From Candidatus Nitrosopumilus koreensis AR1 (lineage in GTDB: Archaea; Thermoproteota; Nitrososphaeria; Nitrososphaerales; Nitrosopumilaceae): 32,000 nucleotides of DNA. A program made the translations under genes and the position numbers. Numbering within the stretch: the stretch's first letter is position 1; every line of letters begins with the position of its first letter. Location of the stretch: the NCBI RefSeq assembly GCF_000299365.1, contig NC_018655.1, positions 900,001-932,000 on the forward strand. Reading direction: 5' to 3'. Shown here piece by piece: positions 1,793 to 30,454 of this stretch. The notes under the pieces are model-generated. The model ran no database searches. It had not been told where the DNA came from and saw only the letters and a program-made list of their open reading frames with translations.

Positions 1793-2215
1793 ATGAAGCA
1801 AAAGGCACAAACAAGAAACATCAAGATTCTAGTTGCAAAATTAGGCCTTGATGGACATGATAGAGGAGCACTTGTTTTGTGTAGAGCATTTAGAGATGCA
1901 GGAATGGAAGTAATCTATTCAGGACTATTTGCAACACCAGAGCGAGTAGCACAGATTGCAGAAGACGAAGATGTTGATGCAATTGCAATGAGTTTGCTAA
2001 ATGGTGCACATGGAACACTATTTCCAAGAGTGGTCAAAGCCCTCAAAAAGAAAAAGATTAACGATGTGTTAGTTGTGGGAGGAGGAGTAATTCCAGAAAT
2101 TGATCATAAAGATTTGATTAAAGCAGGAGTTGACCATGTATTTGGACCAGGAACACCACTACCTACAATAATTAACCACATCAATACTGGGGTAGCAAAA
2201 TTAAGAAAAATATAA
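1793..2215 (+). CDS. Methylmalonyl-CoA mutase, cobalamin-binding small subunit (B12-binding Rossmann domain)
   Basis: 140-aa ORF. KILVAKLGLDGHDRGA carries the DxHxxG lower-ligand motif, followed by MSLLNGAH (SxL) and VVGGGVIP (GG). Size and motifs are typical of the stand-alone archaeal MCM alpha C-terminal subunit. Confidence 0.85.
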   Translation: MKQKAQTRNIKILVAKLGLDGHDRGALVLCRAFRDAGMEVIYSGLFATPERVAQIAEDEDVDAIAMSLLNGAHGTLFPRVVKALKKKKINDVLVVGGGVIPEIDHKDLIKAGVDHVFGPGTPLPTIINHINTGVAKLRKI

Positions 2216-9900: not shown

Positions 9901-11292
9901 ATTATATGCATAATCAACATCGTTTCCAAATGTAAATTTGAGGTTGTGTTCACCCTTGGTCATTACAAGATTATTCAGAATACCCTGAGAGTCGCTAGAA
10001 TAATCTCGAAATATCAAAGAATTGCCAGATATTTCAGGGGTGAATGAATCAACACCTGCAGTTAGAGAAGTGAAACTTAGATCATCAGGAAGAGAGTTAC
10101 CAAATGTGGTTCCATTAAAACCTGTAACGGTCAAATCAGCAGTTCCCAAAGTGTCAAAGCGAACTGTCCAATAACCACCAACTGTAGGGTATGACTGAAC
10201 ATTAATTACGTTAATGTTTGCAACGATTGAAAATTGTTGTTCAGAAAGTTGTGGTACTGTCCAACACATCTGATCATTAATGCCATTTTCATCAGAATCC
10301 TCATAACTCAAATTAAACCTTGGATCATCAGTTACATCAACTTTTTCACCATCAATATTCCAGAACAATTGGAATTCTACACCCATCTCAACATATTCTT
10401 CAGGTAGATCAGAACAGGTCCTAACATCAGAATAGTGTAATCCAGAATCATGAGACACCTTCACATCTTTAGTGAATTCAGAATCAGAAACAGTTGTTTC
10501 TTCTTGAGTTTCTGCAACAGGGGTTTCAAAAATTATAGAATAGTCAGATGAAGAGTTCATAATTACAAGATGGTTAAAGTTGTGGCCTTCTTGAATTAAT
10601 TCGGGATTTTCAATAATAACCAAAGAATAAACACCATCAGGAGTCACAACAAATGTTGCATCACCATCAACTAAGATTTCAGATTGACCTTCAATAGGAG
10701 AGTAAATGTGAATTCCTGTAACATTGTATGTTAACACATCATCTTCAGTTACAAGAAGATGTGAATCAATTTGAGACGAGTCAAACAAAACGTTTTGTGA
10801 ATCGTTTATGGATATGTTTTTGATTTGTGCATCATCAGGTAATGATATTGCGACGCTCTCTTGAAGAGAGTCATATGATACGTTGAAATTCCAGACAACG
10901 TTTTCGCCAACTTCTATAGGTTCATGAGCGATTGTTGTTTCATATTCAGAGTATTCAGGGACTTCAGTTGCAGTAGCAGTAGAGTTTGTTATCTCTTCTG
11001 CAAATGTTTCTGGAGCAATAGAGAAATTTGCAAACCCTGTAAAAGTAGAACTAAGTAAAACCATGCAAAGAAATGCAGTTAAAACTTTTGAATTAATTTC
11101 TAATTGTATTTTGGTTTTAAGTTTGAGAATTACAAATAAAGACAAAATAAAGACAGATAATAAGAAGAACACAGGGTCAGTTTCAGAAAAAATATTTGCC
11201 AAATCACCATTAATTGAAATTCCAAACAAAGTAAGCACTACACCAAATACTAATAATGCCGCTACATGCGCCCCTAGACCCAATATTATCAT
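3991..11292 (-). CDS. Giant (2433 aa) acidic, Ser/Thr/Asp-rich cell-surface protein, with N-terminal hydrophobic anchor/signal region, eight tandem ~125-150-aa repeats and a C-terminal twin WVKxxAxWW module
   Basis: Single uninterrupted ORF. Three hydrophobic segments lie in residues 1-90. A repeat array spans residues ~920-1993. A DLNGDGDFGDE calcium-site-like loop lies at ~residue 2094. The C-terminal motifs are IPPWVKTYVQFWVKGEMSDDEFIDGIEYLI and IPKWVKDYARWWSTDKITDDDFIKAMTHLF. An ATAAATA element ~25 nt upstream of the ATG at 11292 fits a leaderless start. Confidence 0.85.
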   Translation of the reverse strand: MIILGLGAHVAALLVFGVVLTLFGISINGDLANIFSETDPVFFLLSVFILSLFVILKLKTKIQLEINSKVLTAFLCMVLLSSTFTGFANFSIAPETFAEEITNSTATATEVPEYSEYETTIAHEPIEVGENVVWNFNVSYDSLQESVAISLPDDAQIKNISINDSQNVLFDSSQIDSHLLVTEDDVLTYNVTGIHIYSPIEGQSEILVDGDATFVVTPDGVYSLVIIENPELIQEGHNFNHLVIMNSSSDYSIIFETPVAETQEETTVSDSEFTKDVKVSHDSGLHYSDVRTCSDLPEEYVEMGVEFQLFWNIDGEKVDVTDDPRFNLSYEDSDENGINDQMCWTVPQLSEQQFSIVANINVINVQSYPTVGGYWTVRFDTLGTADLTVTGFNGTTFGNSLPDDLSFTSLTAGVDSFTPEISGNSLIFRDYSSDSQGILNNLVMTKGEHNLKFTFGNDVDYAYNDASENEALDVPGLIDDRGVEITKCTTRTTIADFESDFNAPSSDNPHTLIASIQFTKGSSSKLTEAHVYLVDASNPNSHVDLASNQFPIFLNKANSHNNYDLFASVTSGSANAHYLVRACFDSAGNDATYAQAKLTGFENVSEVKFVDGAALTVAKDADDAVIASATTDFTVGNNLDNVVLASVQLYNDGTELLDLPAGSLRLVKDTAGTITDLDSNLLKFNFGRGANPDAQGNKKSAQNEGAKALHVLLMGEDKSAASASTYKVLLDNVAIDDSNGGPTDDDELGSSVQAEAKILVLQPSKVDYKKNSNAWSATSDKSGENKIGDAFSFESFGTGTGLVILAHANFDDTDSGSEKLDNLMLYEGTDIGTSSDTRIITQTSVPDDGDANTIDSFPLQSQGGASAGSNFAQTLLWKIHFLEEPAPEFQLAVDRANNAGGLIAHTKIMAFTTINEGREPGPEIVSFVGADPVTSDSGYSKDDTLTIKFNEPTNRPKAGDKKEIDNLLSFSDSIGKDYIGSWRSDTTLVITILDTTGNGVKFTPLGGSTNTDATTVTIKSSGKLRDQSQSSLISTDTSPRLVADFVNAAGPLITSITANDPDGGTDTGFSSGDTITVRFSEDTNRAGYTLTQTLNEDQVSGLFFFAQNSKEIAFKSATSGEDMYGKWINDKEFKITITNTGSANPLVGAMTMSMQTGSGLKNAAGTSAESTSISPPLSGTWGISLGPKIILLEASDPDGSTQSGDYGDGDVITAVFSENTNMKPVGKINTVLDKDDVDSLFTYNNDDGVDVTTATLGTNANAYSAVWTDAKTLVITIDNSTGGNPKLEQFTLTIKSSAGLKNKDETSLSSSSKSVLLSGTFGQPTGPELGIIEAADAKDTPVSGFNAGDTITVNFLEATNRPNAAKTADINSMFTFSQSIGDDYVGAWVNDKVFVITIRDAGSANPTIGTLTVTAKGDCTGCIPILNKDSTSKASTSTSLALIGNFGVKEGPLITSLIADDPDGVKSGESLGYNEGDTITVRFSEPTNLAGFKLDDSLDKDDVDSIFRMSQEIGDDYSGDWVTDRKFVVTIKDDSVDSPPEIGTLRFIVKESANLKDDGKTSSASDSVSPTLTGTFGEKEGPVIISLVAADPLHLTTSGYGNKDTITVQFSETTNRADFSDAELPKSDVDSIFKFSHSLGDDYTGKWITPSKFEITIKDSSNSAPPAVGTFSLSVKLSAGLQDESESSLISTATSPLLSGTFGAAPSPSIFSVQVADPDAGVQVGNYGNGDEFTILFDIATNGTNNDGGNVTKSYLDSLFDYQNYDGSVSSASLGNDYVGTWVTPFELKITILDSTGGDPTIGEFRLNVKDSQIKLTNAQETSEPLSGVSPLLSGSFTKKAGPSIISVIADDPDNSDDSYSVGDTITVEFSDPTNTPLYDETAAAKDSRLDGLGADTEPTFAEQLEIIDNEERTLTKSEVDSLFQFTQELGDDYRGFWDDGSTFVITILDDDVDVPPEVGSLQVIARESGNIVSDDSLASTSISPPLEGSFGTFQNILSMSEGGKGYTKLPAGMSASIQLPEDNSGTMTFTRVGADGETLPGKGVVSAVIGVSVDIEPSDGANCANGCPVSFEFTTADATAMGLSPNEVVILHDLNGDGDFGDEYFDANNNIRWNETITPTITFLGDDRWRAEGTTNSNSKFALGTVNFVSVGDSYSSINTVNDSTFISLGNSDNGLGGTLRTIDLSDNIEPLVFKTDETLVFRVGVYERQGINHIQHAGLYFNSVGGDLRTKDYDTSIVFDKYSEEIIKTTDPNGLLKHSEFKLLEKEDPTLLILQFAMTFDKSMDTSDLYFELWNEDRNPTYKTFNEILTIKPLDKPVSIEKPEEYIVVTSDDGEFGGMLPVDDSIPPWVKTYVQFWVKGEMSDDEFIDGIEYLITDELAALPANYVDSQRPDEIPKWVKDYARWWSTDKITDDDFIKAMTHLFRIGVINN
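3994..4251 (-). other. Two copies of the WVKxxAxWW...(D/E)(D/E)F..(G/A)(I/M)..L module at the C-terminus of the giant protein
   Basis: Residues ~2348-2380 and ~2397-2433. The same module occurs twice at the N-terminus of the mature 297-aa secreted protein (22150..22413). Confidence 0.7.
5314..8535 (-). repeat. Eight tandem protein-level repeats inside the giant gene (diverged at DNA level)
   Basis: Unit consensus read from the translation: GP.I.S..A.DPDG.....Y..GDTITV.FSE.TN........L.K.DVDS.F.FSQ.IGDDY.G.W.....F.ITI.D.....P.IG.L...V..S..L.......S....SP.L.G.FG. Unit starts are at about residues 920, 1049, 1186, 1326, 1451, 1581, 1707 and 1842. Confidence 0.8.
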
Positions 11293-11388
11293 AATATATT
11301 ACCCAACGTGGTATTTATCCTCTCCACATTGTCTCATGAAAAAATTACAGTTTTCGAGCACAGATCAATTAATTCCCAAAAATGGGAA

Positions 11389-17263: not shown

Positions 17264-18724
17264 ATGAAGATACAAGACACGTTATCAAATACAGAACAAG
17301 AACTAGACATTTCAAAAAAGGTCAAAATCTATCTGTGTGGCATAACAGTTTATGATGAATCACACATAGGCCATGCAAGAACAATCATAGTTTTTGATGT
17401 TCTTAGGAAATACCTAGAAGACAAAGGGATAGAGATTGAATTTATACAAAATTTTACAGATGTGGATGACAAAATAATCAATCGAGCCCAAGTAGAAAAC
17501 ACAACTGCAGAGGCAATAAGTACAAAATACATTGAGAATTATTTCAAAGATTTTGATGGATTAAACGTAAAACATGCAACAAACTATCCAAAGGCAACAG
17601 AACACATTGATGACATTATCAAGTTTATTGAAAAATTAATTGAAAAACAAATTGCATACGTTTCAAAGAACGGAGTATACTTTTCAGTATCAAAGTTTCC
17701 AGAATACGGGAAATTGTCAAAAAAGAAGATTGATGAACTAGAATCAGGTGCAAGAATCGAGGTTGATGAAGCAAAAAACAACCCATTAGATTTTGCAGTA
17801 TGGAAATTCTCAAATACCAAACCAGTTTGGGATAGTCCCTGGGGGAAAGGTAGGCCTGGATGGCATATTGAATGCTCTGCAATGAGTGTAAAGTATCTTG
17901 GAGAAAATTTTGACATTCATGGAGGAGGAAGAGACCTGATATTCCCTCACCATGAAAACGAGATTGCACAATCTGAATCATGTACAGGTTCACAATTTGC
18001 AAAAATTTGGATGCATGTAGGAATGGTCACAATAGATGGAGACAAGATGTCAAAATCCATAGGAAACATAAAGTCAATTAAACATGTTTTAGAGAATTGG
18101 GGACCAAACATCATCAGATTGTTTTGTTTATCAGGACATTACTCAAAACCAATTGATTACTCTGAAGAATTACTAAAAGAAAATCTCATCAAATGGAGAC
18201 AAGCTGAAACATGTTATTATGAATTGATTCATGCAAACAGTAAGAATAGTGAAAAGATAGATTCAACAATTAAGAAACTAGGCTTAGAATTTGACAAGGC
18301 ATTAGAAGATGATTTTAACACTCACCTAGCATTATCGGCATTTTTCCAACTAGTCAAAGAGACAAACAGATTGGCAGCTGAAGAAAAACTAGGAAAGGAA
18401 GATGCACGAAAAATCAAACCAGAGTTTCAAAGAATGCTGAAAATTCTTGGATTAAACATACCAGAGATAACTGAAGAAACAAAACAAGAAATTGACAACA
18501 TGATTGAAGATAGAGAAAAATTCAGACAAGAAAAGCAATTTCAAAAAGCAGATCAAATTAGAGACAGGCTAAATGAGATGGATGTTGAGTTAATTGATCA
18601 TAAAGGAAAAACAATCTGGATGAAAAAGAAAACATCAAATCTGAAAACAAAAAAGAGAAGAATTAAGGATCAACCATTGCTAATTTATCCTCAATTCGAT
18701 CATAGTATCCGTTTTGGTCCATAG
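17264..18724 (+). CDS. cysS: Cysteinyl-tRNA synthetase, with a ~30-aa basic C-terminal tail
   Basis: 486 aa with a HIGH motif (HIGHAR), a KMSKS motif, and GWHIECS zinc/cysteine-site residues. It starts 2 nt after the nadE stop. Its last 62 nt overlap the convergent ORF 18663..18977. Confidence 0.95.
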   Translation: MKIQDTLSNTEQELDISKKVKIYLCGITVYDESHIGHARTIIVFDVLRKYLEDKGIEIEFIQNFTDVDDKIINRAQVENTTAEAISTKYIENYFKDFDGLNVKHATNYPKATEHIDDIIKFIEKLIEKQIAYVSKNGVYFSVSKFPEYGKLSKKKIDELESGARIEVDEAKNNPLDFAVWKFSNTKPVWDSPWGKGRPGWHIECSAMSVKYLGENFDIHGGGRDLIFPHHENEIAQSESCTGSQFAKIWMHVGMVTIDGDKMSKSIGNIKSIKHVLENWGPNIIRLFCLSGHYSKPIDYSEELLKENLIKWRQAETCYYELIHANSKNSEKIDSTIKKLGLEFDKALEDDFNTHLALSAFFQLVKETNRLAAEEKLGKEDARKIKPEFQRMLKILGLNIPEITEETKQEIDNMIEDREKFRQEKQFQKADQIRDRLNEMDVELIDHKGKTIWMKKKTSNLKTKKRRIKDQPLLIYPQFDHSIRFGP

Positions 18725-18977
18725 CAGGAACATAAAATGTTGCAGAAATTACATCTCCAACACCTGCATCACAATCTGTTACAACAACAGAATGACCCAA
18801 AACAGACTCTCCAACACAGCCAAAATCAGTAACAGCGATGACTGACACATCCTCAGTAACTAGTGTTGGAACAATATTCCAAGGAGTGAGTGTGAAAACT
18901 AGTATTACTGAAGTTGCTGCAGCCAAAATTAGCATGAATTTTAGCCGTGGTGTTTTTTCGTGAGTTGTTTGTTGCAT
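18663..18977 (-). CDS. Small membrane-anchored or secreted protein (104 aa), function unknown
   Basis: An N-terminal basic stretch is followed by a hydrophobic helix (PRLKFMLILAAATSVILVFTL). A GAGGAG Shine-Dalgarno-like element lies just upstream of the ATG. A TTATATTT TATA-like box sits at 19006-19013 and a TTGGCACTAGA box at 19033-19043. Confidence 0.5.
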   Translation of the reverse strand: MQQTTHEKTPRLKFMLILAAATSVILVFTLTPWNIVPTLVTEDVSVIAVTDFGCVGESVLGHSVVVTDCDAGVGDVISATFYVPAMDQNGYYDRIEDKLAMVDP

Positions 18978-19048
18978 ATCTCCTCACTCTAGTTTAGAGT
19001 TTACAAAATATAAGCAAGAGGTAATTTTTTCATCTAGTGCCAACTAAT

Positions 19049-19055: not shown

Positions 19056-19385
19056 TTAGATTTTACAATGGCATTTTTTTTGTTTTAAGATTCGGATTTG
19101 TTTGTTGAGAGAATCAACAAACGTATCTTGTACAGATAGTCCCGTAGCTTTTCTTTTATCAAGAGGACTATGATGCAAATATCCACGGTGAATCATCTCA
19201 GCGACTAAAGCATTATGCCTGAAATAAAGAGCTTTTAATTTTCCCTTCCAACGAATTGTTTCAGGATGCATCGAATATCCTTTTTTGTGTTCAGTTACCA
19301 CTGTCCATATTGCATGTAGTTCTCGGTGTTCACCTAACAAATGATTTTTACACAGTTTTTCTGGAGTGATGTCCCAAATTCTCAT
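19056..19385 (-). CDS. Pyrimidine-dimer DNA glycosylase-like protein (T4 endonuclease V / Pyr_excise family, short form)
   Basis: 109 aa. MRIWDITPEKLCKNHLLGEHRELHAIW aligns with T4 endoV LADQHLMAEYRELPRVF, including the catalytic Glu position. The downstream blocks GYSMHPETIRW and EMIHRGY match what I recall of the bacterial/archaeal members. Confidence 0.6.
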   Translation of the reverse strand: MRIWDITPEKLCKNHLLGEHRELHAIWTVVTEHKKGYSMHPETIRWKGKLKALYFRHNALVAEMIHRGYLHHSPLDKRKATGLSVQDTFVDSLNKQIRILKQKKCHCKI

Positions 19386-19614
19386 TTTATCAACTCGCTA
19401 AATGATACTTGTTTACAAACAACAACTTGACCATATCCCATAATGGAAAAATAATTTTTGGCATATTTAATAAAAAACAAAATCCAAAACTAGTGATAAA
19501 AAATAAAAAAGCTTTAGCTAATTTTGAAAAATTTACGCATAAAAAATTAGTTCAGTCTAATTAGTTTCATCTAATTTTCGAGTCGTTTAATAGAATCAGA
19601 AACTAAATTAGTCT

Positions 19615-19899
19615 ATGAATGCATGGAGTAAGTTTTGGAAATGGTATGAAGATAAAATTCTTGGAAGCATAATCATAATTGCAATTATTCAATTTATTCA
19701 AATCCCACATATGGTATGGAATGCAGATATTATGTTAGAAGCGGGTTTTGTCTCAAGAGTGCACCCCGTAATTGATTGGTTTTTGTACGGAGTAGATTTG
19801 ATTGAGATAATATCAATTGTCAATGTTGGCATGATCATGTTTAGCCTAATTAAAAAAAGACAGGCATCAAAAAAACGTGTAGAATTAAATCAAGTATAA
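19615..19899 (+). CDS. Small integral membrane protein (94 aa, two predicted TM helices), function unknown
   Basis: Hydrophobic segments are ILGSIIIIAIIQFIQI and LIEIISIVNVGMIMFSLI, with a basic C-terminal tail. A TTTAATAGA TATA-like box lies ~29 nt before the ATG. Confidence 0.5.
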   Translation: MNAWSKFWKWYEDKILGSIIIIAIIQFIQIPHMVWNADIMLEAGFVSRVHPVIDWFLYGVDLIEIISIVNVGMIMFSLIKKRQASKKRVELNQV

Positions 19900-21585: not shown

Positions 21586-22479
21586 TCACTCTAGATTTAG
21601 AGGAATATTTGCAGTGCCAAAGTTTTCATTAATTCTAAACACATATTCTTTTGAAGAATCATATTCAAACTCGGTTCCTCCATATCCAATGTTTGGCCCA
21701 AAGAGAATGTTAAATTCTCTTGCATCACCAGGATTCAGTACAATTTGCCCGCTGGTAAAGTCCATACCAGAATATTTGAATGCCTTTGAACCATCCCATA
21801 CATCATATGCACATATTTGAGGACTAGTGCAATTTAGAGCAGCGATTTCAGAACTTGTGTTTTCAGCAAGCATGCGAATTGACAACAAAGGTTGTCCAGT
21901 AGAAGTAATCTCAAATTCATTTCCATTAGAACCAATTCCAGTCCAATAATATGTGATTGGTCCTAAATCAAATTTTTGAGCATTGGATGTGTATTCATAT
22001 ATTTTGATAGCTTGTTTGAGAGGTTTTTCGCAATCTAGTCTTTTGTAGGCTTTGGCAATTTCAGCACATTTTTCAAGTTCAGCTTCTAGTGCGGCTAATT
22101 TTGAATCAACGTTTTTTGGTTCTTCAGATACTATTTGTGAGGATTCAGATGGTACTGAAATCAATCCAAATGCAATCAAATGTTGGATGCCATTAACAAA
22201 CTCACCATCAGATATGACCCCATCTGCCCACCAGCCTGCATTGTTCTTAACCCAGTCCGGTACACCTTCTGCAGATTCAGAAGACACTGCAGTAGCAGGA
22301 ACGGTAATTATTCCCTCAGAAATTAAAAATGAGATTCCCGTAAGAAATTCAGATTCAGATATGACCCCATCTGCCCACCAGCCTGCATTGTTCTTAACCC
22401 AGTCCGGTACCTCAGCATACGCATAGGTAGTCGTTGCAATCAGCATAATTGCAGTTAGTGCAGTTATCGTGGTTTTCAT
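21586..22479 (-). CDS. Secreted protein (297 aa) with a signal peptide, two N-terminal WVKNNAGWW modules, a coiled linker and a Cys-containing C-terminal domain of unknown function
   Basis: Signal peptide MKTTITALTAIMLIATTTYAYA|EV. VPDWVKNNAGWWADGVIS(E/D).EF..GI..LI..G(I/L)I.VP occurs twice, 49 residues apart. TATA TTATATAC (22501-22508, minus strand) lies 29 nt before the ATG. Confidence 0.75.
   Translation of the reverse strand: MKTTITALTAIMLIATTTYAYAEVPDWVKNNAGWWADGVISESEFLTGISFLISEGIITVPATAVSSESAEGVPDWVKNNAGWWADGVISDGEFVNGIQHLIAFGLISVPSESSQIVSEEPKNVDSKLAALEAELEKCAEIAKAYKRLDCEKPLKQAIKIYEYTSNAQKFDLGPITYYWTGIGSNGNEFEITSTGQPLLSIRMLAENTSSEIAALNCTSPQICAYDVWDGSKAFKYSGMDFTSGQIVLNPGDAREFNILFGPNIGYGGTEFEYDSSKEYVFRINENFGTANIPLNLE
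22208..22263. repeat. 56-bp perfect direct repeat, copy A (partner 22355..22410)
   Basis: TCAGATATGACCCCATCTGCCCACCAGCCTGCATTGTTCTTAACCCAGTCCGGTAC is identical in both copies with a 147-bp (49-codon) offset. It encodes VPDWVKNNAGWWADGVIS on the minus strand. Confidence 0.9.
22355..22410. repeat. 56-bp perfect direct repeat, copy B (partner 22208..22263)
   Basis: Compared base by base with copy A. The flanking bases differ on both sides. Confidence 0.9.
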
Positions 22480-22508: not shown

Positions 22509-22519
22509 GCTAGTGGCAA
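22509..22519 (-). promoter_or_regulatory. TTRNCACTAG box (TTGCCACTAGC on the minus strand), proximal copy abutting the TATA box of gene 21586..22479
   Basis: It lies directly adjacent to TTATATAC (22501-22508). Start-to-start spacing from the 22528-22538 box is 19 nt. Confidence 0.45.
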
Positions 22520-22527
22520 ATAATTTT

Positions 22528-22538
22528 TCTAGTGCTAA
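22528..22538 (-). promoter_or_regulatory. TTRNCACTAG box (TTAGCACTAGA on the minus strand), distal copy
   Basis: It lies 19 nt upstream of the TATA box at 22501-22508. The 11-mer is identical to the boxes at 29213 and 30172. Confidence 0.5.
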
Positions 22539-22561
22539 ATTATGAAAGTTAAGACATTAAG

Positions 22562-22572
22562 ACTAGTGGCAA
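22562..22572 (-). promoter_or_regulatory. TTRNCACTAG box (TTGCCACTAGT on the minus strand), third copy in the 22480-22623 spacer
   Basis: It lies 34 nt upstream of the 22528 box. Its palindromic ACTAGT core is 21 nt upstream of the TTTAAATT TATA-like box (22594-22601) of the divergent DUF1722 gene. Confidence 0.4.
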
Positions 22573-22623: not shown

Positions 22624-23163
22624 ATGACTAAAAAAAATATTGCAAGCACATCAAGATTATCTGAGCAAGAAATCACAGAATACATCCTAGATAGATTCAA
22701 AGACGTAAAACAAGGAAAAATCAAAGACCTCGTTTCATTTCAAGCCATGAACAAATACATGATTATGGCACACAGTCAAATCGAATTAAAAATTTTGGGA
22801 AATATTGTGGCCAGTTATAAGAAAACATCATTATCAGATATAATGTCAGAATATGAAAAGCACCTAAAAATTGCTTTAGAAAAACAACCAACTACTAAAT
22901 CACATTATAATGTAATAATGCATATTTTTGGACATTTTTCAAAAAACTTTAGCCAAACAGAAAAAGAGCAATTTTTTAAATTGTTTTACAGATTTAGAGA
23001 GGGAGAAATAACCATAGGTGAAATTTTGTCTGAGATAAATCAAATTATTTTTCGATTCAACAACACATATCTTGCAAACCAAACATATTTTCTCCTATAT
23101 TCAGATCAACAGACAAGAAATTTGTTTCACATATTATCACAAATGAATCTAGAAAAAATCTGA
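22624..23163 (+). CDS. DUF1722 (YbgA-family) domain protein
   Basis: 179 aa. NKYMIMAHSQIELKILGNIVA ... SHYNVIMHIFGHFSKNFSQTEKEQFFKLFYRFREGEITIGEIL ... YLANQTYF follows the DUF1722 pattern as I recall it (HK.LLMAHS...LG.LVA ... H.NVL.H..GYFK..L...EK.EL...I..YR.G ... YL..Q.YL). Confidence 0.6.
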   Translation: MTKKNIASTSRLSEQEITEYILDRFKDVKQGKIKDLVSFQAMNKYMIMAHSQIELKILGNIVASYKKTSLSDIMSEYEKHLKIALEKQPTTKSHYNVIMHIFGHFSKNFSQTEKEQFFKLFYRFREGEITIGEILSEINQIIFRFNNTYLANQTYFLLYSDQQTRNLFHILSQMNLEKI

Positions 23164-24306: not shown

Positions 24307-24375
24307 TGAAATTGGTGCTCAATCTGTGCCTAATAACTTGACTAATGATGTTAGTTGACGGAAGGTTAACACCGT

Positions 24376-24477
24376 TTATTCGGGATCTTCAGACTCTCTT
24401 TCACGTCCACATTGAGGACAAACAGTTTGGTTTTGCCATAACTCCTTACCACAATTCCTACAAGACTGAGGTTTCAT
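24376..24477 (-). CDS. Small zinc-ribbon protein (33 aa), below the ORF-track cutoff, upstream of the Nre gene
   Basis: Own codon-by-codon translation: MKPQSCRNCGKELWQNQTVCPQCGRERESEDPE, with a CxxC-x10-CxxC pattern. Its ATG is ~27 nt from the centre of the TATA element at 24499-24508. No obvious promoter lies in the 69-nt gap before the Nre ATG. Confidence 0.45.
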   Translation of the reverse strand: MKPQSCRNCGKELWQNQTVCPQCGRERESEDPE

Positions 24478-24498
24478 ATAGAAGATACAACAAGATTG

Positions 24499-24508
24499 AA
24501 TTTAAAAA
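24499..24508. promoter_or_regulatory. Single quasi-symmetric TATA element (AATTTAAAAA) equidistant from two divergent start codons
   Basis: The centre at ~24503.5 is 26.5 nt from the minus-strand ATG at 24477 and 27.5 nt from the plus-strand ATG at 24531. Confidence 0.4.
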
Positions 24509-24530
24509 CTTCTACATATCTAAAAAGTTG

Positions 24531-25454
24531 ATGGCAATAAATAGAATAGTTTCTTTCTTGCCTAGTGCAACAGAGTTACTATATGAGTTTGGGGTTCAAG
24601 ATAAACTGTTTGGAGTCACACATGAATGTAAATTTCCACATGAAGCTATTTTCAAACCACAAATAATTGACACTGTAATAGATTCTGAAAAACTATCCAG
24701 TGATGAAATCAACACACAAACATGTCAATTACTAAAAAATGGAAAAGATATTTTTGTGTTAAATGAAAAAAATCTGCTAAAAGCAAATCCAGACATGATT
24801 ATTTCACAAGAAACTTGCGAAGTTTGTGCAGCATATAATAACCAAGTAAACAAAGCATTGCAGATTCTCGAAAACAAGCCCATAATCTACTCAATGGATC
24901 CACACAACATACAAGAAATCATAGAATCAGTTACAAAGTTAGGGATGATTTTAGAAAAGGAATCTAGAGCAAAAGAGATTACAGATTTACTTGAAAAAAG
25001 AATTTTGAGTATAAAAAATAAACAAACTAAAAACAAACCACGAGTACTTGCAATTGAGTGGTTAGAACCATTTTTTACCGCAGGTCATTGGGTTCCAGAA
25101 ATGGTCCAAATTGCAGGAGGGGTGAATCTAATAAGCAAGACAGGTGAACATTCAAGACGTATGGAATTTCAAGAGATATTAGATTCAGACCCAGACATTA
25201 TTGTTTTAATGCCATGTGGGTTTGATGTAAAACGTACAATTTCTGAGTTTGAAATCATGTTGAGAGAGAACAAAGCATGGAATAGTCTCAGAGCAGTAAA
25301 AAACAAAAGAGTTTTTGCAGTAGATGCAAATTCATTTTTTAGCAAACCCAGTATCAGAACAATTGAGGGGGTTGAGATATTAGCAAAAATTTTTCATCCA
25401 GAAATATACGATGATGTAAAAATTCCAAAAACATTCCAAAATATCAAAATTTGA
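24531..25454 (+). CDS. Periplasmic-binding-protein type 2 fold protein (BtuF/FhuD-like corrinoid or iron-complex binding protein) without a signal peptide
   Basis: MAINRIVSFLPSATELLYEFGVQDKLFGVTHEC is the typical N-terminal strand-helix of the Peripla_BP_2 family, with ANPDMII and DPDIIVLMPCG blocks. The internal ATG at 24531 is preferred over the track start at 24345. The first 62 codons overlap the antisense zinc-ribbon ORF, and the TATA box lies at -27 of 24531. Confidence 0.7.
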   Translation: MAINRIVSFLPSATELLYEFGVQDKLFGVTHECKFPHEAIFKPQIIDTVIDSEKLSSDEINTQTCQLLKNGKDIFVLNEKNLLKANPDMIISQETCEVCAAYNNQVNKALQILENKPIIYSMDPHNIQEIIESVTKLGMILEKESRAKEITDLLEKRILSIKNKQTKNKPRVLAIEWLEPFFTAGHWVPEMVQIAGGVNLISKTGEHSRRMEFQEILDSDPDIIVLMPCGFDVKRTISEFEIMLRENKAWNSLRAVKNKRVFAVDANSFFSKPSIRTIEGVEILAKIFHPEIYDDVKIPKTFQNIKI

Positions 25455-25457
25455 TTA

Positions 25458-27569
25458 TTATTTCAAATTTTGTTCTGCAGATGCAGATGCCACAGGAGTA
25501 GCATTAACTGGATCAACTGTTACTTTTACGGTATCAGTATCTTGTCTGCCGTTATTATCAAATACCTTTAACTCAAACACTAGAACCTTAATTTCACCAT
25601 TTGCAACTGTAGGAGTAGTAAATATAGGAGTAACACTAGACTTTGAGGACAGCGTCACTGCCTCACCTGCTATTTGAGTCCAAGAATATGATAAAGGTTG
25701 GTTTTCAGGATCATGGCTACCACGTCCATCAAGAGAGACTTGGATTTTTTCATTTACTATCATATCATTGCCAGCATCAGCAACAATATCCAGATTAAGA
25801 GTATTCCTTACAGTCAAAGTAAGACTATCAGAAGCACTGAGAGTACCATCACTAACAGTACAAGTCAAGATAATTTTAGAATCACCTACAACATTTGGAG
25901 TTTTCACTAAAGTATTTCCACTTGAAGGTTCAGTGAAAACAACATTAGATGAAGAAGACCAAGAAAATGTGAGTGCGTCACCATCAGGATCAGTTCCACT
26001 ACACATTATGTTTACCAAAGTATTTTCATCAACAGTTCTATCATCACTTACAGTTGCTGTAGGTGCACTGTTTTCAGGAGATACAAACACTACAACCTGA
26101 TCAAAAGCTTTTTGATCAGCAGTGTCAGTAACTGTTAGTTGGAAAGACAAACGTTTGGATTCAGAAGGCATTACTTCAGGAGCAACAAAGCTTAGAGTTT
26201 TACCAGATTTATCAAAAGTCACAAGGTCTCCAGACAATTGTTTCCATGAGAAGGTTAGAGGATCACCGTCTGCATCAGAACCAGAGCCAATTATAGTAAC
26301 AGGGCTACCACTTACAACACGTCTGTCAGGACCAGCTGAAGCATTTGGAGGAGAATTCCTGTTAGTGACGACAATGTTTACATCATCAGAATCAGAATTA
26401 CCATGAACATCAGTTACAGTAAGCTCAAAGACTAAAGTTTCAGAGTCAGAACTAATTTGAGGAGAGAAGAAATAGATCGAAAATGATGCTCTTTCATAGA
26501 ATTTCACCACAGGTCCAGATTTTTGGCTCCAAGAATATCTTATGCTATCACCATCAGGATCAGTTCCAGTTCCCAATAATTTTACAAGAACATTTTCAGG
26601 TACGTTTTGATTAGGTCCTGCATCAGCAATTGGGGAACCATTGGAAGGAAGTACTTTAACCATTGCCAAAGCATTTGCATATCCGTTTCCAGGTGAATAA
26701 CCAGTTACTTGGAAGGAAAGTAGTTTTTCAGTGTCTCCAACTTGAGGTGCAATAAATTCTACTTCGGGACCAATAAAAGAGCTAATAGATGCAGAAGGTC
26801 CTAACAACTGAACCCAAGAAAATCTAATGTCTGATCCATCTACTGTTTGGCCTGTAGCAGTGAGAGTCACCCTTTCACCTTCATAAACAGTTTGCAGGGG
26901 TCCAGCATCAACAGTGATTCGTCTGTTGTCAATAAGATTTGAAAACAAGTACACATTTACACTATCTGTTGCAGTACCACCAAATCCGTCATCAACAGTT
27001 ACTTGAAATGACAAAGGTTCAAAATCAGAAAAATCAAGATAAATGGGCTGGAATGTAATATGTTTATTGTCGGTGTATACAAGTTCTACTTCTTGTCCAC
27101 CAGTTTGTTTCCACTGATAAGTTAGTACATCACCATCAGGATCATGTGCTGAAGGAAAGATACTCATTACATGAACACCAGGCAATGCAACTTTATCACG
27201 TCCAGCATCAACTTGAGGTGCATGGTTTACAGGATTAACAACTACTTCAACAATATCAGAATGACTTGCCCCAATAGGGTCAGTAACTGTCAATTCAAAA
27301 GTTAAAACCTTAATTTCACCATTTGCAACTGTAGGAGCCATAAATGTGGGTTCAGGAATAGAATAAGAAGAAAGAACTACAGGTTCGCCATAGATTTGAA
27401 CCCATTTAAAGACAAGTTTATCATGATCAGCATCAAATCCTTCGCCAAGTAAGGTCACCATCTTATTTTCAACAACATCAATAGATTCTATCTGTTGAGC
27501 AAATGAATCAGAAACTCCAATTACAACAAACAAAGATAATACTAAAGGTAATAGAAAAAAACCATTCAT
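25458..27569 (-). CDS. Secreted protein (703 aa) built from seven PKD/Ig-like (KIAA0319-type PKD) repeats
   Basis: Signal peptide MNGFFLLPLVLSLFVVIGVSDSFA|QQ. The repeating ~95-aa unit is DAG.D..V.....V.L.G.GSDPDGD.L.(Y/F)SW.Q..G..V.......L.F.AP.V.....L.F.LTVTD..G....D.V.V.V. Confidence 0.8.
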   Translation of the reverse strand: MNGFFLLPLVLSLFVVIGVSDSFAQQIESIDVVENKMVTLLGEGFDADHDKLVFKWVQIYGEPVVLSSYSIPEPTFMAPTVANGEIKVLTFELTVTDPIGASHSDIVEVVVNPVNHAPQVDAGRDKVALPGVHVMSIFPSAHDPDGDVLTYQWKQTGGQEVELVYTDNKHITFQPIYLDFSDFEPLSFQVTVDDGFGGTATDSVNVYLFSNLIDNRRITVDAGPLQTVYEGERVTLTATGQTVDGSDIRFSWVQLLGPSASISSFIGPEVEFIAPQVGDTEKLLSFQVTGYSPGNGYANALAMVKVLPSNGSPIADAGPNQNVPENVLVKLLGTGTDPDGDSIRYSWSQKSGPVVKFYERASFSIYFFSPQISSDSETLVFELTVTDVHGNSDSDDVNIVVTNRNSPPNASAGPDRRVVSGSPVTIIGSGSDADGDPLTFSWKQLSGDLVTFDKSGKTLSFVAPEVMPSESKRLSFQLTVTDTADQKAFDQVVVFVSPENSAPTATVSDDRTVDENTLVNIMCSGTDPDGDALTFSWSSSSNVVFTEPSSGNTLVKTPNVVGDSKIILTCTVSDGTLSASDSLTLTVRNTLNLDIVADAGNDMIVNEKIQVSLDGRGSHDPENQPLSYSWTQIAGEAVTLSSKSSVTPIFTTPTVANGEIKVLVFELKVFDNNGRQDTDTVKVTVDPVNATPVASASAEQNLK
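25500..27491 (-). repeat. Seven tandem ~95-aa PKD/Ig-like domain repeats (protein level)
   Basis: Read from the translation. The first and last units share a 32-bp perfect DNA match (25584-25615 and 27306-27337, AACCTTAATTTCACCATTTGCAACTGTAGGAG) encoding PTVANGEIKVL. Confidence 0.75.
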
Positions 27570-27693: not shown

Positions 27694-29073
27694 TTAGATA
27701 GGTTTTCCCCTATATTGATAATCAATGACTTTGTGAAATAAATTGTGAGAGGCAATCACAGTTAGCATTACCGCAATCATTCCAATAAAATTTCTTACCA
27801 TTACCAATTCGTTTAAAGTATTTTCAATGTTTGGGATTTCAAAAAACACATAGTAACTGTCAATCATCCAGAATACCAAAGTTACCCACGACGAGAATCC
27901 GGCAATCAAGTAACCTAAACGAGTTTTATTATGAATTAGAATTATTGAAGAAAATATCGCAATATACCAAAACGAAGAGCCCATTAGCCATAAAGGCTGA
28001 TAAACATCAGATCTATTATCCAGCCAATAGTAGCTTGAACCAACAACAGCTAATGTAAAAAGAGAAACTTGAATTAGCATTTGGTTTATTTTGAAACCTG
28101 TTTTTTCTTCTTTTTGTTCCATTTCAGGAGGATCTAATTCCATCTCTTTTGTTGCAATATCAATTGCTTCATGAACGGACTTTAGACGCACAGGTATGAT
28201 TTTTTTTATTGAATCATCAGTTACAACAGTATCATGAACTAAACTATCAATCAAAGGTCTTGCAAGCGATGCTTTGACAGGAGTAATAAGATCAACCCAG
28301 TAAGAAGACAACCTAGTTGTTAAAAATGGAATATGCAGTACAAACAGATTTTTGTTGATATATGTTGAATACACACGCATTAATTCTTCATAAGTCATTT
28401 TGTCAGGCCCTCCTATCTCAAAGATCTTTCCTACTGTTTCAGGTTTTGAAAGAGATTCAGCCAAATAGTAAATCACATCATCTACTGCAATTGGTTGAGC
28501 TAACGATTTTACCCAAGAAGGGCACACCATAATTCTTAATCTTTCAACAAGATAACGAAGCATCGCATATGAACCACCCTTTGCACCAATAATTATAGAA
28601 GCCCTAAACTCAGTTACAGGAATATTTCCGGATGCAAGTATTTCTCCAACCTCCTTTCTACTACGCATGTGTGGAGAAAGTTCTAAACTATCATTTACTA
28701 ATCCACCAAGGTAAATAATTCTCTTAACTCCCGATTCCGTTGCAGATCTAAGAAAGTTTTGAGCTTGAATTTTTTCTCTTGTAACAAATTCTAGCCAATT
28801 ACCTTTATCACCTTCCATTGAATGAAGTAAATAAAATGCAGTATCAATTCCAGACATTGCATTTTTTAATTCATCAAATTTGAAAACATCTGCCTGAACA
28901 TATTTTATTTTTTCACTATCAGGTAATTGTTTTCTAGTTAATCCTTTTACAGAATATCCTAAAGAAGACAATAATGAAATCAATCTAGAGCCAATAAAAC
29001 CAGTTGCCCCCGTAACTAATATGGAGAAAGGCCTGGAACTATATGCATTATTTATTGAAAGTGTTTCTTTCAT
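27694..29073 (-). CDS. NAD(P)-binding NmrA/atypical-SDR-like domain fused to a C-terminal multi-pass membrane domain
   Basis: 459 aa. ILVTGATGFIGSRL forms the TGxxGxxG Rossmann motif. Residues ~330-445 contain four hydrophobic helices (LIQVSLFTLAVVGSSYYWL, LWLMGSSFWYIAIFSSIILI, YLIAGFSSWVTLVFWMI, FIGMIAVMLTVIASHNLF). Confidence 0.75.
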   Translation of the reverse strand: MKETLSINNAYSSRPFSILVTGATGFIGSRLISLLSSLGYSVKGLTRKQLPDSEKIKYVQADVFKFDELKNAMSGIDTAFYLLHSMEGDKGNWLEFVTREKIQAQNFLRSATESGVKRIIYLGGLVNDSLELSPHMRSRKEVGEILASGNIPVTEFRASIIIGAKGGSYAMLRYLVERLRIMVCPSWVKSLAQPIAVDDVIYYLAESLSKPETVGKIFEIGGPDKMTYEELMRVYSTYINKNLFVLHIPFLTTRLSSYWVDLITPVKASLARPLIDSLVHDTVVTDDSIKKIIPVRLKSVHEAIDIATKEMELDPPEMEQKEEKTGFKINQMLIQVSLFTLAVVGSSYYWLDNRSDVYQPLWLMGSSFWYIAIFSSIILIHNKTRLGYLIAGFSSWVTLVFWMIDSYYVFFEIPNIENTLNELVMVRNFIGMIAVMLTVIASHNLFHKVIDYQYRGKPI

Positions 29074-29119: not shown

Positions 29120-29130
29120 ACTAGTGATAA
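29120..29130 (-). promoter_or_regulatory. TTRNCACTAG box (TTATCACTAGT on the minus strand), proximal copy abutting TAAATAG of gene 27694..29073
   Basis: It lies adjacent to the TATA-like TAAATAG (29113-29119, minus strand). Start-to-start spacing from the 29139 box is 19 nt. Confidence 0.45.
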
Positions 29131-29138
29131 TAATAAAT

Positions 29139-29149
29139 TCTAGTGATAA
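29139..29149 (-). promoter_or_regulatory. TTRNCACTAG box (TTATCACTAGA on the minus strand), distal copy
   Basis: It lies 19 nt upstream of the TAAATAG element. Confidence 0.5.
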
Positions 29150-29212: not shown

Positions 29213-29223
29213 TTAGCACTAGA
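29213..29223 (+). promoter_or_regulatory. TTRNCACTAG box (TTAGCACTAGA), distal copy upstream of the B12-photoreceptor-like gene
   Basis: It lies 18 nt upstream of TTATATAAT (29242-29250), which is 27 nt before the ATG at 29269. Confidence 0.5.
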
Positions 29224-29231
29224 AATTTGGG

Positions 29232-29242
29232 TTAGCATTAGT
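29232..29242 (+). promoter_or_regulatory. Degenerate box (TTAGCATTAGT, one mismatch), proximal copy abutting the TATA box of gene 29269..30111
   Basis: It starts exactly 19 nt after the 29213 box. This is the same tandem geometry as the pairs 22528/22509 and 29139/29120. Confidence 0.35.
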
Positions 29243-29268
29243 TATATAATATAGCATTAAAAAAAAGC

Positions 29269-30111
29269 ATGGTCTACATACGAGCTAAAAAGGTCAAATC
29301 AGATCAGTATCTGTATTTAGTCAAAAGCGTATGGGATTCAAAAAAAAGTACATCAAAACAAGAAATCATAAAATATCTAGGAAAGGCATCTGAGGTCGTT
29401 AAAGATGACATTCCAATAGATTATAGAAACGACCCTAAGGTGTTATCAGTTTTAGCATCTTACAATCCAAAAGATATCAAAAAAAGAGAGGACGCAACAA
29501 AAAAATCAAAACAGCAATTATACAAAAAATTAACAGAAGGAAATATTCAAGACTCGATAAAAATTTATGAAGAATATACAAAAATATTCAACATACCAGA
29601 TTTTTTTGACAGAATTTTAAAACCAATAATGTGTAGGATTGGAGACGAGTGGGAAACAGGGAAAATCAGCATAGCAACTGAGCATGTTGCAAGTAACGTT
29701 GCACAAACACTAGTAAAAATAATCATGGAACAAGTTACAGGTTCTGCAAGCAAGAAAAAAATTCTCATTTGTGTTCCAATAGGTGAAGAGCATCATCTTG
29801 GGTGTGATGTTTTAGAAACATACCTGTCCATAAAAGGATTCAAAATATACAATATGAGAACTTCAATGCCAACTGAATCAATACTGGGTTTTATAGATAA
29901 CAACAATCCAGACGTGGTCTTAGTGTCAATTACATTGGAAGATAATCTTTTAGCAGGACAAAGACTAGTTAAAAAAATCAAGGACCATGCAGATATACCA
30001 GTATTAATCGGAGGATATGCACTGCAAGCAAGGAAAATTCCAAAGTTTTTAGGAGATGTGATTCCAGATTGTGGTCTTGAAGAACTTCCAAAAATTTTAA
30101 GAAGAAACTAA
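29269..30111 (+). CDS. Cobalamin-binding CarH/LitR-like photoreceptor-type protein with a non-MerR N-terminal domain (putative B12/light-responsive regulator)
   Basis: 280 aa. The helical cap carries W128-x9-E138-H139 (GDEWETGKISIATEHV). The Rossmann B12 domain has E173-x-H175-x-x-G178 (IGEEHHLG), SITL (SxL) and IGGYA (GG). The N-terminus YIRAKKVKSDQYLYLVKSVWDSKKSTSKQEIIKYLGK is basic and beta-rich, with no HTH recognised. Confidence 0.75.
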   Translation: MVYIRAKKVKSDQYLYLVKSVWDSKKSTSKQEIIKYLGKASEVVKDDIPIDYRNDPKVLSVLASYNPKDIKKREDATKKSKQQLYKKLTEGNIQDSIKIYEEYTKIFNIPDFFDRILKPIMCRIGDEWETGKISIATEHVASNVAQTLVKIIMEQVTGSASKKKILICVPIGEEHHLGCDVLETYLSIKGFKIYNMRTSMPTESILGFIDNNNPDVVLVSITLEDNLLAGQRLVKKIKDHADIPVLIGGYALQARKIPKFLGDVIPDCGLEELPKILRRN

Positions 30112-30171: not shown

Positions 30172-30182
30172 TTAGCACTAGA
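30172..30182 (+). promoter_or_regulatory. TTRNCACTAG box (TTAGCACTAGA) upstream of the 60-aa zinc-ribbon gene
   Basis: The 11-mer is identical to 29213-29223. It lies ~17 nt upstream of TTTAAATA (30200-30207). A GGAGGAG Shine-Dalgarno-like element at 30259-30265 is 8 nt before the ATG. Confidence 0.5.
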
Positions 30183-30271
30183 TAAAATAATTATTTTGTT
30201 TTAAATAATTTTGAACATCAATTTATTCATAGTATGTGTTTTGATATCAAAAAAAGTCGGAGGAGAAATTA

Positions 30272-30454
30272 ATGGGTAGAACGTGTAGAGGTATTTGCGA
30301 AATGCACAAAGCAGAACCTGCACCAAATAAAATCAGATATGAAATAGGTCAGAAAAGGTGCACGTTTTGTGGAATATTCTTAGCAATAAACGATCCAAGA
30401 TGTATTTGTTGCAAAGCTGTATTGAGAACAAATCCAAGAAGTAAGAAAAGATGA
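30272..30454 (+). CDS. Small Cys-rich zinc-ribbon protein (60 aa) with a basic C-terminal tail
   Basis: MGRTCRGICEMHKA...KRCTFCGIFL...RCICCKAVLRTNPRSKKR has seven Cys, including CxxC and CxCC pairs. It is preceded by a strong GGAGG element. Confidence 0.6.
   Translation: MGRTCRGICEMHKAEPAPNKIRYEIGQKRCTFCGIFLAINDPRCICCKAVLRTNPRSKKR

Follow-up and report, generated by a model that had tools for sequence, protein, structure and literature searches.

What is the function of the 280-residue protein encoded, from an ATG start, at 29269..30111 on the plus strand of a 32,000-nucleotide stretch of the Candidatus Nitrosopumilus koreensis AR1 genome (the window, to which coordinates given without another label refer)? 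The public names of this protein and its relatives disagree, ranging from response regulator receiver protein, histidine kinase and methionine synthase to 'methanogenic corrinoid protein MtbC1' and, occasionally, 'MerR light-induced regulator'. A sequence-only reading of the window had proposed a cobalamin photoreceptor signature of the CarH/LitR type behind an N-terminal domain that is not MerR. Combining open reading frames (ORFs), Pfam domains and an AlphaFold model, we find that the C-terminal two thirds of the protein are a CarH-type cobalamin-binding domain, in which a cap with GxxW and EH elements lies over a Rossmann domain with a histidine lower ligand. The gene is probably an undescribed archaeal light switch. 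We refer to it and its homologues as the family genes, and to their products as family proteins.

Domain architecture and family

The protein, whose sequence is 100% identical to a Ca. N. koreensis AR1 protein, consists of an N-terminal beta-sheet domain, a helical connector and the cobalamin-binding domain. Two Pfam domains pass their gathering scores: B12-binding_2 (residues 82-152, E 1.4e-8) and B12-binding (residues 169-251, E 2.5e-10). The AlphaFold2 model, built from the family alignment, has a mean predicted local distance difference test (pLDDT) score of 94.5 and a predicted template-modelling score of 0.82. In this model, a three-stranded antiparallel sheet (residues 1-39; 29269..29385, +) is followed on its C-terminal side by a D-I-P-x-[E/D]-Y-R segment seen in the family alignments (residues 47-53; 29407..29427, +), in which P49 is invariant. 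The helical-bundle cap occupies residues 82-155 (29512..29733, +), with modelled helices at 67-89, 93-106, 109-129 and 135-155, and the Rossmann-type subdomain, assigned from the Pfam B12-binding match and the strand/helix pattern of the model, spans residues 164-251 (29758..30021, +). The Lys/Glu-rich segment that had been described as a linker behind the N-terminal domain is present; it is modelled as an ordered helix, however, and not as a floppy tether.

A search of 1.84 billion cluster representatives returned about 50 clusters with the full architecture, at identities down to 23%, and a further search from the distant member P0281 added next to no matches. Conservation figures below refer to an alignment of 46 family representatives, likewise with identities down to 23%. 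By phyletic distribution, the family occurs in the Nitrosopumilaceae and reaches beyond ammonia oxidisers into archaeal contigs with 66-72% guanine plus cytosine (GC). One of these contigs, L211, is assigned to the Archaea because it encodes MCM, which is the sole taxonomic handle on the high-GC branch.

The cobalamin-binding domain carries a CarH-type light-sensor signature

The W128-x9-E138-H139 motif in the cap (29650..29685, +) and the E173-x-H175-x-x-G178 motif in the Rossmann subdomain (29785..29802, +; in full E173-E-H175-H-L-G178) lie exactly where the sequence-only reading had placed them. H175 is the predicted lower axial ligand and aligns with the histidine of CarH E175-x-H177. In a phmmer search of all PDB sequences, Thermus thermophilus CarH is the top match of the cap region (E 1.3e-7). 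The alignment pairs IGDEWETGKISIATEH with CarH VGEAWHRGEIGVAEEH, and PIGEEHHLG with PPGERHEIG; W128, E138, H139 and H175 therefore map residue for residue onto W131, E141, H142 and the lower ligand H177 of CarH, and the conserved G190 corresponds to CarH G192. E173, H175, G248 and G249 are invariant in the family, and W128, E138 and H139 are at least 90% conserved. By regular expression, the CarH-type motif [D/E]xHxx[G/P]-x41-Sx[T/V]-x22-27-GG, as defined previously (PMC9304148), is matched whole, running from E173 through S220-I-T222 to G248-G249 with the actual form ExHxxG-x41-SxT-x26-GG. The glycine pair had thus been identified correctly, whereas the reported S-x-L is in reality S-I-T. The W, E and H kept by the family are replaced by F, V and L in MetH. 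The mutase-type contrast that had been drawn within the window also holds, in that the ORF at 1793..2215 contains GLDGHDRGA and is a methylmalonyl-CoA mutase C-terminal B12 domain.

Profile and structure comparisons both rank solved B12 photoreceptors above MetH and corrinoid proteins. Against the PDB, the family profile scores photocobilins at 9e-30, CtMerR at 6e-28, CarH/LitR at 4e-25 and a GGDEF photocobilin at 2e-24, and behind these photoreceptors follow MetH (3e-20), corrinoid proteins (2e-18) and AerR (1.5e-17). The 50 best Foldseek matches of the model in the PDB are B12 photoreceptors without exception, and CarH cobalamin-binding-domain chains are matched with template-modelling scores of 0.84-0.87 (normalised to target length) at a root-mean-square deviation of about 2.6 Å. 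Together, the phmmer alignment, the family conservation and the profile ranking bear out the CarH-type signature at the CarH positions. Among NCBIfam models, the CarH equivalog NF052513 scores best (E 3.3e-15), but at 56.1 bits against a cut-off of 400 the protein is not a CarH orthologue. SignatureFinder defines the light-response elements of cobalamin-binding domains as GxxW, EH, GxxH and GxxxP (PMC11796333). Three of these four are found, as G125-D-E-W128, E138-H139 and G172-E-E-H175.

An N-terminal beta-sheet domain is shared with IS1634 transposases

The usual MerR domain is replaced, as had been proposed: no MerR or other helix-turn-helix Pfam model matches the protein at E values up to 10, and residues 1-39 are modelled as a beta sheet. 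The segment is basic and beta-rich as described, with strands at residues 2-9, 12-23 and 28-39, and its pLDDT exceeds 90 in the full model and is 93 when the domain is predicted alone. It is the best-conserved part of the family, with R5, K7, Y14, Y16, V18, Q31, Y36 and G38 invariant, as is P49 behind it. The domain has no Pfam family, no PDB sequence match and no significant Foldseek match, and when the N-terminus alone was searched against a large protein database, all matches were truncated pieces of family proteins, with no new architecture among them.

A resemblance to the N-terminus of IS1634-type transposases, which the sequence-only reading had proposed, is recovered by two methods. 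A tblastn search of plasmids with the family consensus gave 31 records, most of them annotated 'IS1634 family transposase', at E values from 1e-5 to 1e-3, and the matches start at the first residues of the annotated transposase coding sequences. With hhalign, the family and the IS1634 transposase N-terminus align over 43 columns with a probability of 97.3% (E 1.6e-11). Over about 43 residues, both share the pattern F-[IV]-[KR]-x-[KT]...G..[RY]Y..LVES...[DN]....P[KR]Q....LG[RK]. The IS1634 transposases carry a DDE_Tnp_1 domain farther on, and their N-terminus is without a Pfam model. Pfam finds no DDE_Tnp_1 catalytic domain in the 280-residue protein, so that its kinship to these transposases is confined to one domain. 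In DDE transposases, sequence-specific recognition of the element ends usually resides at the extreme N-terminus. From this placement and from the conserved Arg, Lys, Tyr and Gln residues, we infer that the beta-sheet domain is a DNA-binding domain.

Tandem boxes abut the TATA box of the family gene and recur at other promoters in the window

The sequence-only reading had also noted a tandem pair of boxes in the promoter of the family gene. Box 1, TTAGCACTAG, lies at 29213..29222 (+; as an 11-mer, TTAGCACTAGA, 29213-29223), and box 2, TTAGCATTAG, follows 19 bp later at 29232..29241 (+; as an 11-mer, TTAGCATTAGT, 29232-29242). Box 2 directly abuts the TATA box TTATATAA (29242..29249, +), which is located about 20 nucleotides (nt) 5' of the ATG and thus leaves a short leader or none. 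With 10 copies in the window and 1.01 expected, the core TTNNCACTAG is enriched tenfold; none of 100 shuffles reached 10 copies. Nine of the ten copies are intergenic, although intergenic sequence makes up 12% of the window, and all nine point at the adjacent downstream ORF. We considered whether the box is a general promoter element and rejected this, since only five intergenic regions of the window carry it and homologues of Nre, the GTPase, MscS and other genes are without one.

Three promoters of the window are laid out alike, with paired boxes at a 19-bp period and the proximal box of the pair directly against the TATA box: that of the family gene, that of the divergent NmrA-like gene, where TTATCACTAG occurs twice (29140/29121; 29121..29149, −), and that of the ORF at 21586..22479. 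Because it abuts the TATA box, the proximal box covers the TFB recognition element (BRE) in the family gene's own promoter and in several others. Three boxes (22510-22519, 22529-22538 and 22563-22572; 22510..22572, −) lie upstream of ORF 21586..22479, and the third of these precedes the TATA box of the divergent DUF1722 gene by about 20 nt. Single boxes precede the small zinc-ribbon gene (30172..30181, +), the pyrimidine-dimer DNA glycosylase gene (19490..19499, −) and ORF 18663..18977 (19034..19043, −). The box pair had been taken as a sign of autoregulation. The boxes mark a putative multi-gene regulon and not autoregulation alone.

Two further observations concern the sequences around these promoters. 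The box and TATA-like sequence before the zinc-ribbon gene (30172-30195) are followed by some 90 nt (30183-30271) up to the ATG, which is preceded by GGAGGAG. The neighbouring box promoters are nearly leaderless; here, the spacing points to a long leader, or else to a small RNA or ORF that has escaped annotation. A tandem 14-nt repeat, TTAGTTCAGTCTAA / TTAGTTTCATCTAA (19548-19575), upstream of ORF 19615..19899 (94 residues, no Pfam match), is a different candidate cis-element.

The boxes are conserved in related loci and recur in distant lineages

We compared 80 related genome loci, all from Nitrosopumilaceae because a narrower alignment than the 46-sequence one was used, with family proteins that are 64-88% identical. 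In all 79 usable loci, the promoter of the family gene reads TTRGCACTAK-N9-TTRGCAYYAG-TTAWATA. The CAC/CA core is invariant and the spacer drifts, while the ATG keeps a fixed distance of 56-61 nt and the TTAWATA sequence its position. Aligned in this way, the double box and TATA box of the family gene are a classic phylogenetic footprint.

GCACTAG-like boxes also recur beside family members of 23-42% identity in genomes with up to 72% GC. Raw 8-mer counts in these distant loci are not significant on their own, so that the case there relies on the position, pairing and spacing of the boxes. In L209 (family protein 42% identical, 45% GC), TTGGCACTAGA-N8-TTAGCACTAG-TTTAAATA precedes a homologue of ORF 21586..22479, with the family gene 31 nt later; the two genes form an apparent operon behind a double box. 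In L084 (50% GC), TTGGCACTAGT lies about 14 nt upstream of a TATA-like sequence. Pairs 19 bp apart are present on the minus strand of L210 (72% GC; GGGCACTAG and GCGGCATTAT) and L211 (68% GC; GGCACTAT and GTGCACTAT), in both cases within the AT-rich promoter region of an MMPL transporter gene with the family gene directly after it. The start of the family gene lies directly behind this MMPL-family gene or within its end (L210:1341-5017, L211:1385-4885), which suggests an operon, an arrangement not seen in Nitrosopumilaceae. In L083 (66% GC), TTAGGCA occurs five times, always on the plus strand, against about 0.65 copies expected from base composition. Three of these copies precede called genes by 27-61 nt, with the family gene (27 nt) among these genes, and two copies spaced 20 bp apart make up an intergenic tandem pair. 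L081 (67% GC) contains five tandem GCGTGCGCATCC units with a 12-bp period (5165-5224), between the distant family gene and a gene for a TudS+DUF1722 protein; this array may be a lineage-specific operator.

In an unbiased scan of a sample of metagenome contigs, most sequences that matched TTRNCACTAG-N9-TTRNCACTAG were AT-rich thaumarchaeal promoters in which a TATA box comes immediately after box 2. Unrelated tandem repeats picked up by the same scan in L097, L100, L106, L146 and L161 were discarded, as they had neither an AT-rich context nor a TATA box. These are arrays with a 19-bp period on contigs of 40-51% GC (e.g., L100:567-968 and L146:1022-1222), with TTGACACTAGTAGCTATGA, for instance, repeated at least 13 times.

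Genes behind the boxes and in the neighbourhood

Our census of the regulon covers the flanks of the family gene and a sample of metagenome contigs. In the 80 loci, the double box fronts the family gene 72 times, the secreted WVKNNAGWWADG protein gene 46 times, an NmrA/epimerase-like membrane protein gene 17 times, genes for small membrane proteins nine times, the gene for the 104-residue protein five times and a flavin amine oxidase gene four times, as well as genes for small zinc-ribbon proteins. Double-box promoters in the metagenome contigs front the same Nitrosopumilaceae gene families together with TspO/MBR (E 7e-51), a PPOX-like protein and several unknowns. In two marine metagenome contigs (L108:323 and L141:1921 regions), the TspO/MBR gene starts 28 nt after the double box and TATA box.

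The most frequent box-fronted gene besides the family gene itself encodes, in the window, a 297-residue secreted protein with WVKNNAGWWADG repeats (21586..22479, −). Divergent from its triple-box promoter is a stand-alone DUF1722 (YbgA-like) gene (22624..23163, +; Pfam DUF1722, E 7e-34), which 69 loci carry, in 66 cases at 0-5 kb from the family gene; the arrangement recurs in those DUF1722 upstream regions that we inspected in related loci. The L081 gene directly behind the distant family member likewise contains DUF1722, fused to TudS. TudS-DUF1722 (RudS) proteins strip ultraviolet (UV)-sensitive 4-thiouridine from tRNA, and their genes have been reported in light-responsive operons with photolyase, under B12-dependent LitR regulators (PMC11417400). 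The box-fronted divergent neighbour of the family gene (27694..29073, −) encodes an NmrA/epimerase-like, NAD(P)-binding protein (Pfam NAD_binding_10, Epimerase and NmrA) whose C-terminal half is hydrophobic; the gene occupies this position in 58 of the 80 loci, in keeping with the synteny of the island. In L083, an Epimerase/NmrA (YbjT-like) gene lies two genes past the distant family member, and right after the family gene comes a homologue of a box-driven 'SWAVY' membrane protein with a TTAGGCAC box before it.

Downstream of the family gene, an ORF for a 60-residue, Cys-rich, basic zinc-ribbon-like protein (30272..30454, +) is a conserved neighbour in about 60 of the 80 loci, and homologues follow a double box in the metagenome contigs L116, L129, L135, L145 and L153. 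The pyrimidine-dimer DNA glycosylase (Pyr_excise) gene (19056..19385, −; Pfam E 4e-26) lies about 11 kb from the zinc-ribbon gene in the window, and directly behind it in six related loci (L016, L019, L022, L025, L032 and L073). The gene for a membrane-anchored protein of 104 residues (18663..18977, −) has a box upstream in 25 of 26 homologues. Taken together, the box-fronted and adjacent genes (Pyr_excise, TspO, amine oxidase, DUF1722) fit a light/UV-stress regulon better than a cobalamin-metabolism regulon. No photolyase gene was found in the window or behind the boxes, the ORF at 17264..18724 being a Cys-tRNA ligase, and no gene for cobalamin synthesis, salvage or transport is among the box-fronted genes found. 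Homologues of Nre, the Obg-like GTPase and MscS in related loci have no box upstream.

Other features of the region are listed here for completeness. A Peripla_BP_2 (BtuF-like) gene without a box upstream lies in the island beside the Nre gene (24345-25454; L002:5268-6194). In L002, from a Nitrosopumilus relative, a paralogue of TFB (TFIIB) is encoded between the family gene and the zinc-ribbon gene (10358-11347), and about 31 loci hold some 4 kb between these two genes that the window is without. Two large minus-strand ORFs of the window encode 2433 residues (3991-11292) and 703 residues (25458-27569), the latter with repeated 'L[ST]F.W.Q..G' motifs that suggest extracellular Ig-like repeats.

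Discussion

Our analysis makes it fairly probable that the gene product is a transcription factor of an undescribed family, controlled by adenosylcobalamin (AdoCbl) and light, which would bind the boxes as a dark oligomer. In the proposed mechanism, the AdoCbl-loaded protein would oligomerise in the dark and its beta-sheet domains would sit on the tandem boxes. Occupied boxes would block the recruitment of TFB and the TATA-binding protein at the BRE and TATA box, and would thereby repress the family gene itself and a small regulon comprising the secreted WVKNNAGWWADG protein, the NmrA/YbjT-like reductase, membrane and zinc-ribbon proteins, the glycosylase, TspO and the flavin amine oxidase. 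Cleavage of the Co-C bond by light would abolish the oligomer or its DNA-binding geometry, and the regulon would be derepressed.

Several observations weigh against this mechanism, and its weakest steps are the direction of regulation (repressor or activator) and the chemistry of the light state without an equivalent of His132. His132 of Thermus CarH provides the upper ligand in the bis-His light state, and light-driven disassembly of the tetramer depends on it (PMC10442372). The residue that follows the cap Trp in the 280-residue protein is E129; the position varies across the family, where a few proteins (e.g., P0248) have His, and H132 itself is present in many CarH proteins, though not all. 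The salt bridge R176-D201 of the CarH dimer corresponds to E174/S199. The fourth SignatureFinder element, GxxxP, reads R197-T-S-M-P201. At least 90% of the family representatives keep P201; most members have G, A or S at position 197, where Nitrosopumilus has R. According to Foldseek, the beta-sheet domain is without a significant structural match to any known DNA-binding fold, and for the IS1634 N-terminal region, too, a role in DNA binding is a deduction. The boxes are inverted relative to the gene in the DUF1722, L210 and L211 promoters, which obscures the direction of regulation, and they could be bound by another factor. Neither photolyase nor carotenoid genes were seen behind a box, and most members of the regulon have no known function. 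Finally, cobalamin binding, photochemistry and DNA binding of the protein are predictions from its sequence and model.

If light were irrelevant, a B12-loaded protein on the boxes could report cofactor status and act as a protein stand-in for B12 riboswitches. Such a cobalamin-availability sensor would make use of the complete B12-binding site, would account for the missing His132 equivalent, which Thermus CarH requires for light-driven disassembly, and would suit a genome segment that encodes a B12 enzyme nearby (the methylmalonyl-CoA mutase subunit) and a BtuF-like periplasmic binding protein in the same island. However, the Peripla_BP_2 gene is boxless and the box-fronted genes found include none for cobalamin biosynthesis, salvage or transport; the regulon contains instead a UV-lesion glycosylase and TspO, with DUF1722 adjacent. 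The family shares with photoreceptors the W, E and H of the cap, which contact the adenosyl group, and the closest solved relatives are all photoreceptors. We therefore regard this explanation as improbable. A similarly small chance is given to a switch of the AerR/PpaA type, in which the beta-sheet domain would bind a protein, the boxes would be read by another factor such as the zinc-ribbon protein or the TFB paralogue, and the family gene would be a mere member of the regulon. AerR-type B12 photosensors, represented among the matches by PDB 7te2, indeed lack a DNA-binding domain, the beta-sheet domain lacks a proven DNA-binding relative, the basic 60-residue zinc-ribbon protein is both a conserved neighbour and a regulon member, and the TFB paralogue adjoins the family gene in L002. 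In contrast, homology of the beta-sheet domain to the extreme N-terminus of DDE transposases and the identity of its invariant residues (Arg, Lys, Tyr and Gln) speak for contact with DNA; boxes lie near the family gene in distant lineages, where inspection by eye found no zinc-ribbon homologue among the nearby small ORFs; and the family profile scores AerR (1.5e-17) well behind CarH (4e-25).

The remaining explanations follow the public gene names. A corrinoid carrier of a methyltransferase system (MtbC/MtaC/MtgC-like) or a detached MetH module is suggested by the names 'methanogenic corrinoid protein MtbC1' and 'Methionine synthase protein' in the source annotations, and by NCBIfam matches to MtgC, MtbC and MetH with E values from 1e-9 to 2e-8. 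These matches are weak, at 27-38 bits against cut-offs of 215-1010 (38 against 350-370 for the top scores), and MetH has F, V and L where the family keeps W, E and H. The sequence-only reading had named a methyltransferase partnership as a fatal finding for its proposal, and neither the window nor the related loci inspected contain a partner gene. Since a carrier function would also leave the conserved N-terminal domain and the conserved operator unexplained, we consider it very unlikely. A fragment of a response regulator or histidine kinase, as several genome annotations have it, finds some backing in these names and in a weak Pfam Response_reg match (E 0.0023). That match, with 18.5 bits against a cut-off of 30.2, falls below threshold and over the Rossmann B12 domain, with which it shares the flavodoxin-like fold, whereas both B12 domains pass their thresholds and no kinase domain is present, leaving this identity with a negligible likelihood.

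The light-controlled transcription factor that we favour is best understood beside the known systems. CarH/LitR proteins (Thermus thermophilus, 5C8D/5C8E; Myxococcus xanthus; Bacillus megaterium) are AdoCbl-dependent photoreceptor repressors. Like them, the family protein combines a Wx9EH cap with a Rossmann ExHxxG...SxT...GG domain, aligned residue for residue; its candidate operator, to which the family protein is predicted to bind, consists of tandem direct repeats overlapping the core promoter; its gene adjoins genes apparently under its control, its own promoter included; and its neighbours and regulon are of the light/UV type (DUF1722, a lesion-repair enzyme). The CarH operator is made of contiguous 11-bp repeats, whereas the boxes described here have a period of 19 bp. 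Unlike CarH, moreover, the family protein carries the IS1634-transposase-like beta-sheet domain in place of the MerR winged-helix domain, has Glu after the cap Trp and is missing the R176-D201 pair, and its boxes sit at an archaeal TATA/BRE promoter rather than a bacterial -35 region, with no carotenoid genes seen. With no MerR domain, an equivalog score below the cut-off and no His132 equivalent, the protein would thus work like CarH/LitR without being a member of that family. Judged by the elements that it carries, it falls into the wider class of light-responsive cobalamin-binding domains that bear the signature.

The best profile and Foldseek matches are the photocobilins (SasPcob, 8J2W/8J2X; AbDPcob, 8J2Y) and Chloracidobacterium CtMerR (8JBS), in which the cobalamin domain is a modular light sensor with varied outputs: a biliverdin-binding globin, a GGDEF domain or a MerR helix-turn-helix domain. 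They have GxxW, EH and GxxH in common with the family protein, in which GxxxP is RxxxP, and none of them has the beta-sheet domain. AerR/PpaA proteins (SCHIC-type) use a cobalamin domain of the same fold in light-responsive gene regulation, have no DNA-binding domain and work via a partner; their similarity to the family protein is much below that of CarH, and the family protein has its conserved N-terminal domain in addition. Fusions of light-responsive cobalamin-binding domains to varied outputs have been described (PMC11796333, PMC10979010); a transposase-related beta-sheet output is not among the output domains in the main text of these reports, and archaea are unmentioned there. The literature that we searched holds no report tying the family protein, Nitrosopumilus or Thaumarchaeota to CarH or B12 photoreceptors, in agreement with the earlier statement that none has been characterised in this lineage.

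Brought together, the evidence leads to a reading in which our confidence is evenly divided: this would be the first archaeal B12 photoreceptor transcription factor, using a beta-sheet DNA-binding module shared with, and perhaps recruited from, IS1634 transposases. It would act on GCACTAG direct repeats spaced by 19 bp at the BRE and TATA box, and control by light a regulon in ammonia-oxidising and high-GC archaea that includes UV-lesion repair, TspO and membrane and secreted proteins.

Ammonia-oxidising archaea are among the ocean's most abundant microbes, and nitrification is inhibited by light. We know of no light-sensing pathway in these organisms, and none was found in the literature searched. 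If the proposal is correct, it would give molecular access to the light sensitivity that has long been observed in marine nitrifiers, and a defined operator with a short list of targets would make the question of light sensing directly testable. B12 photoreceptors would be extended to the Archaea and to archaeal TATA/BRE promoters, and would gain a new type of output, a transposase-related beta-sheet DNA-binding domain, which in turn would hint at the role of the IS1634 transposase N-terminus. The protein would also be a possible compact, green-light-responsive DNA-binding part for optogenetics.

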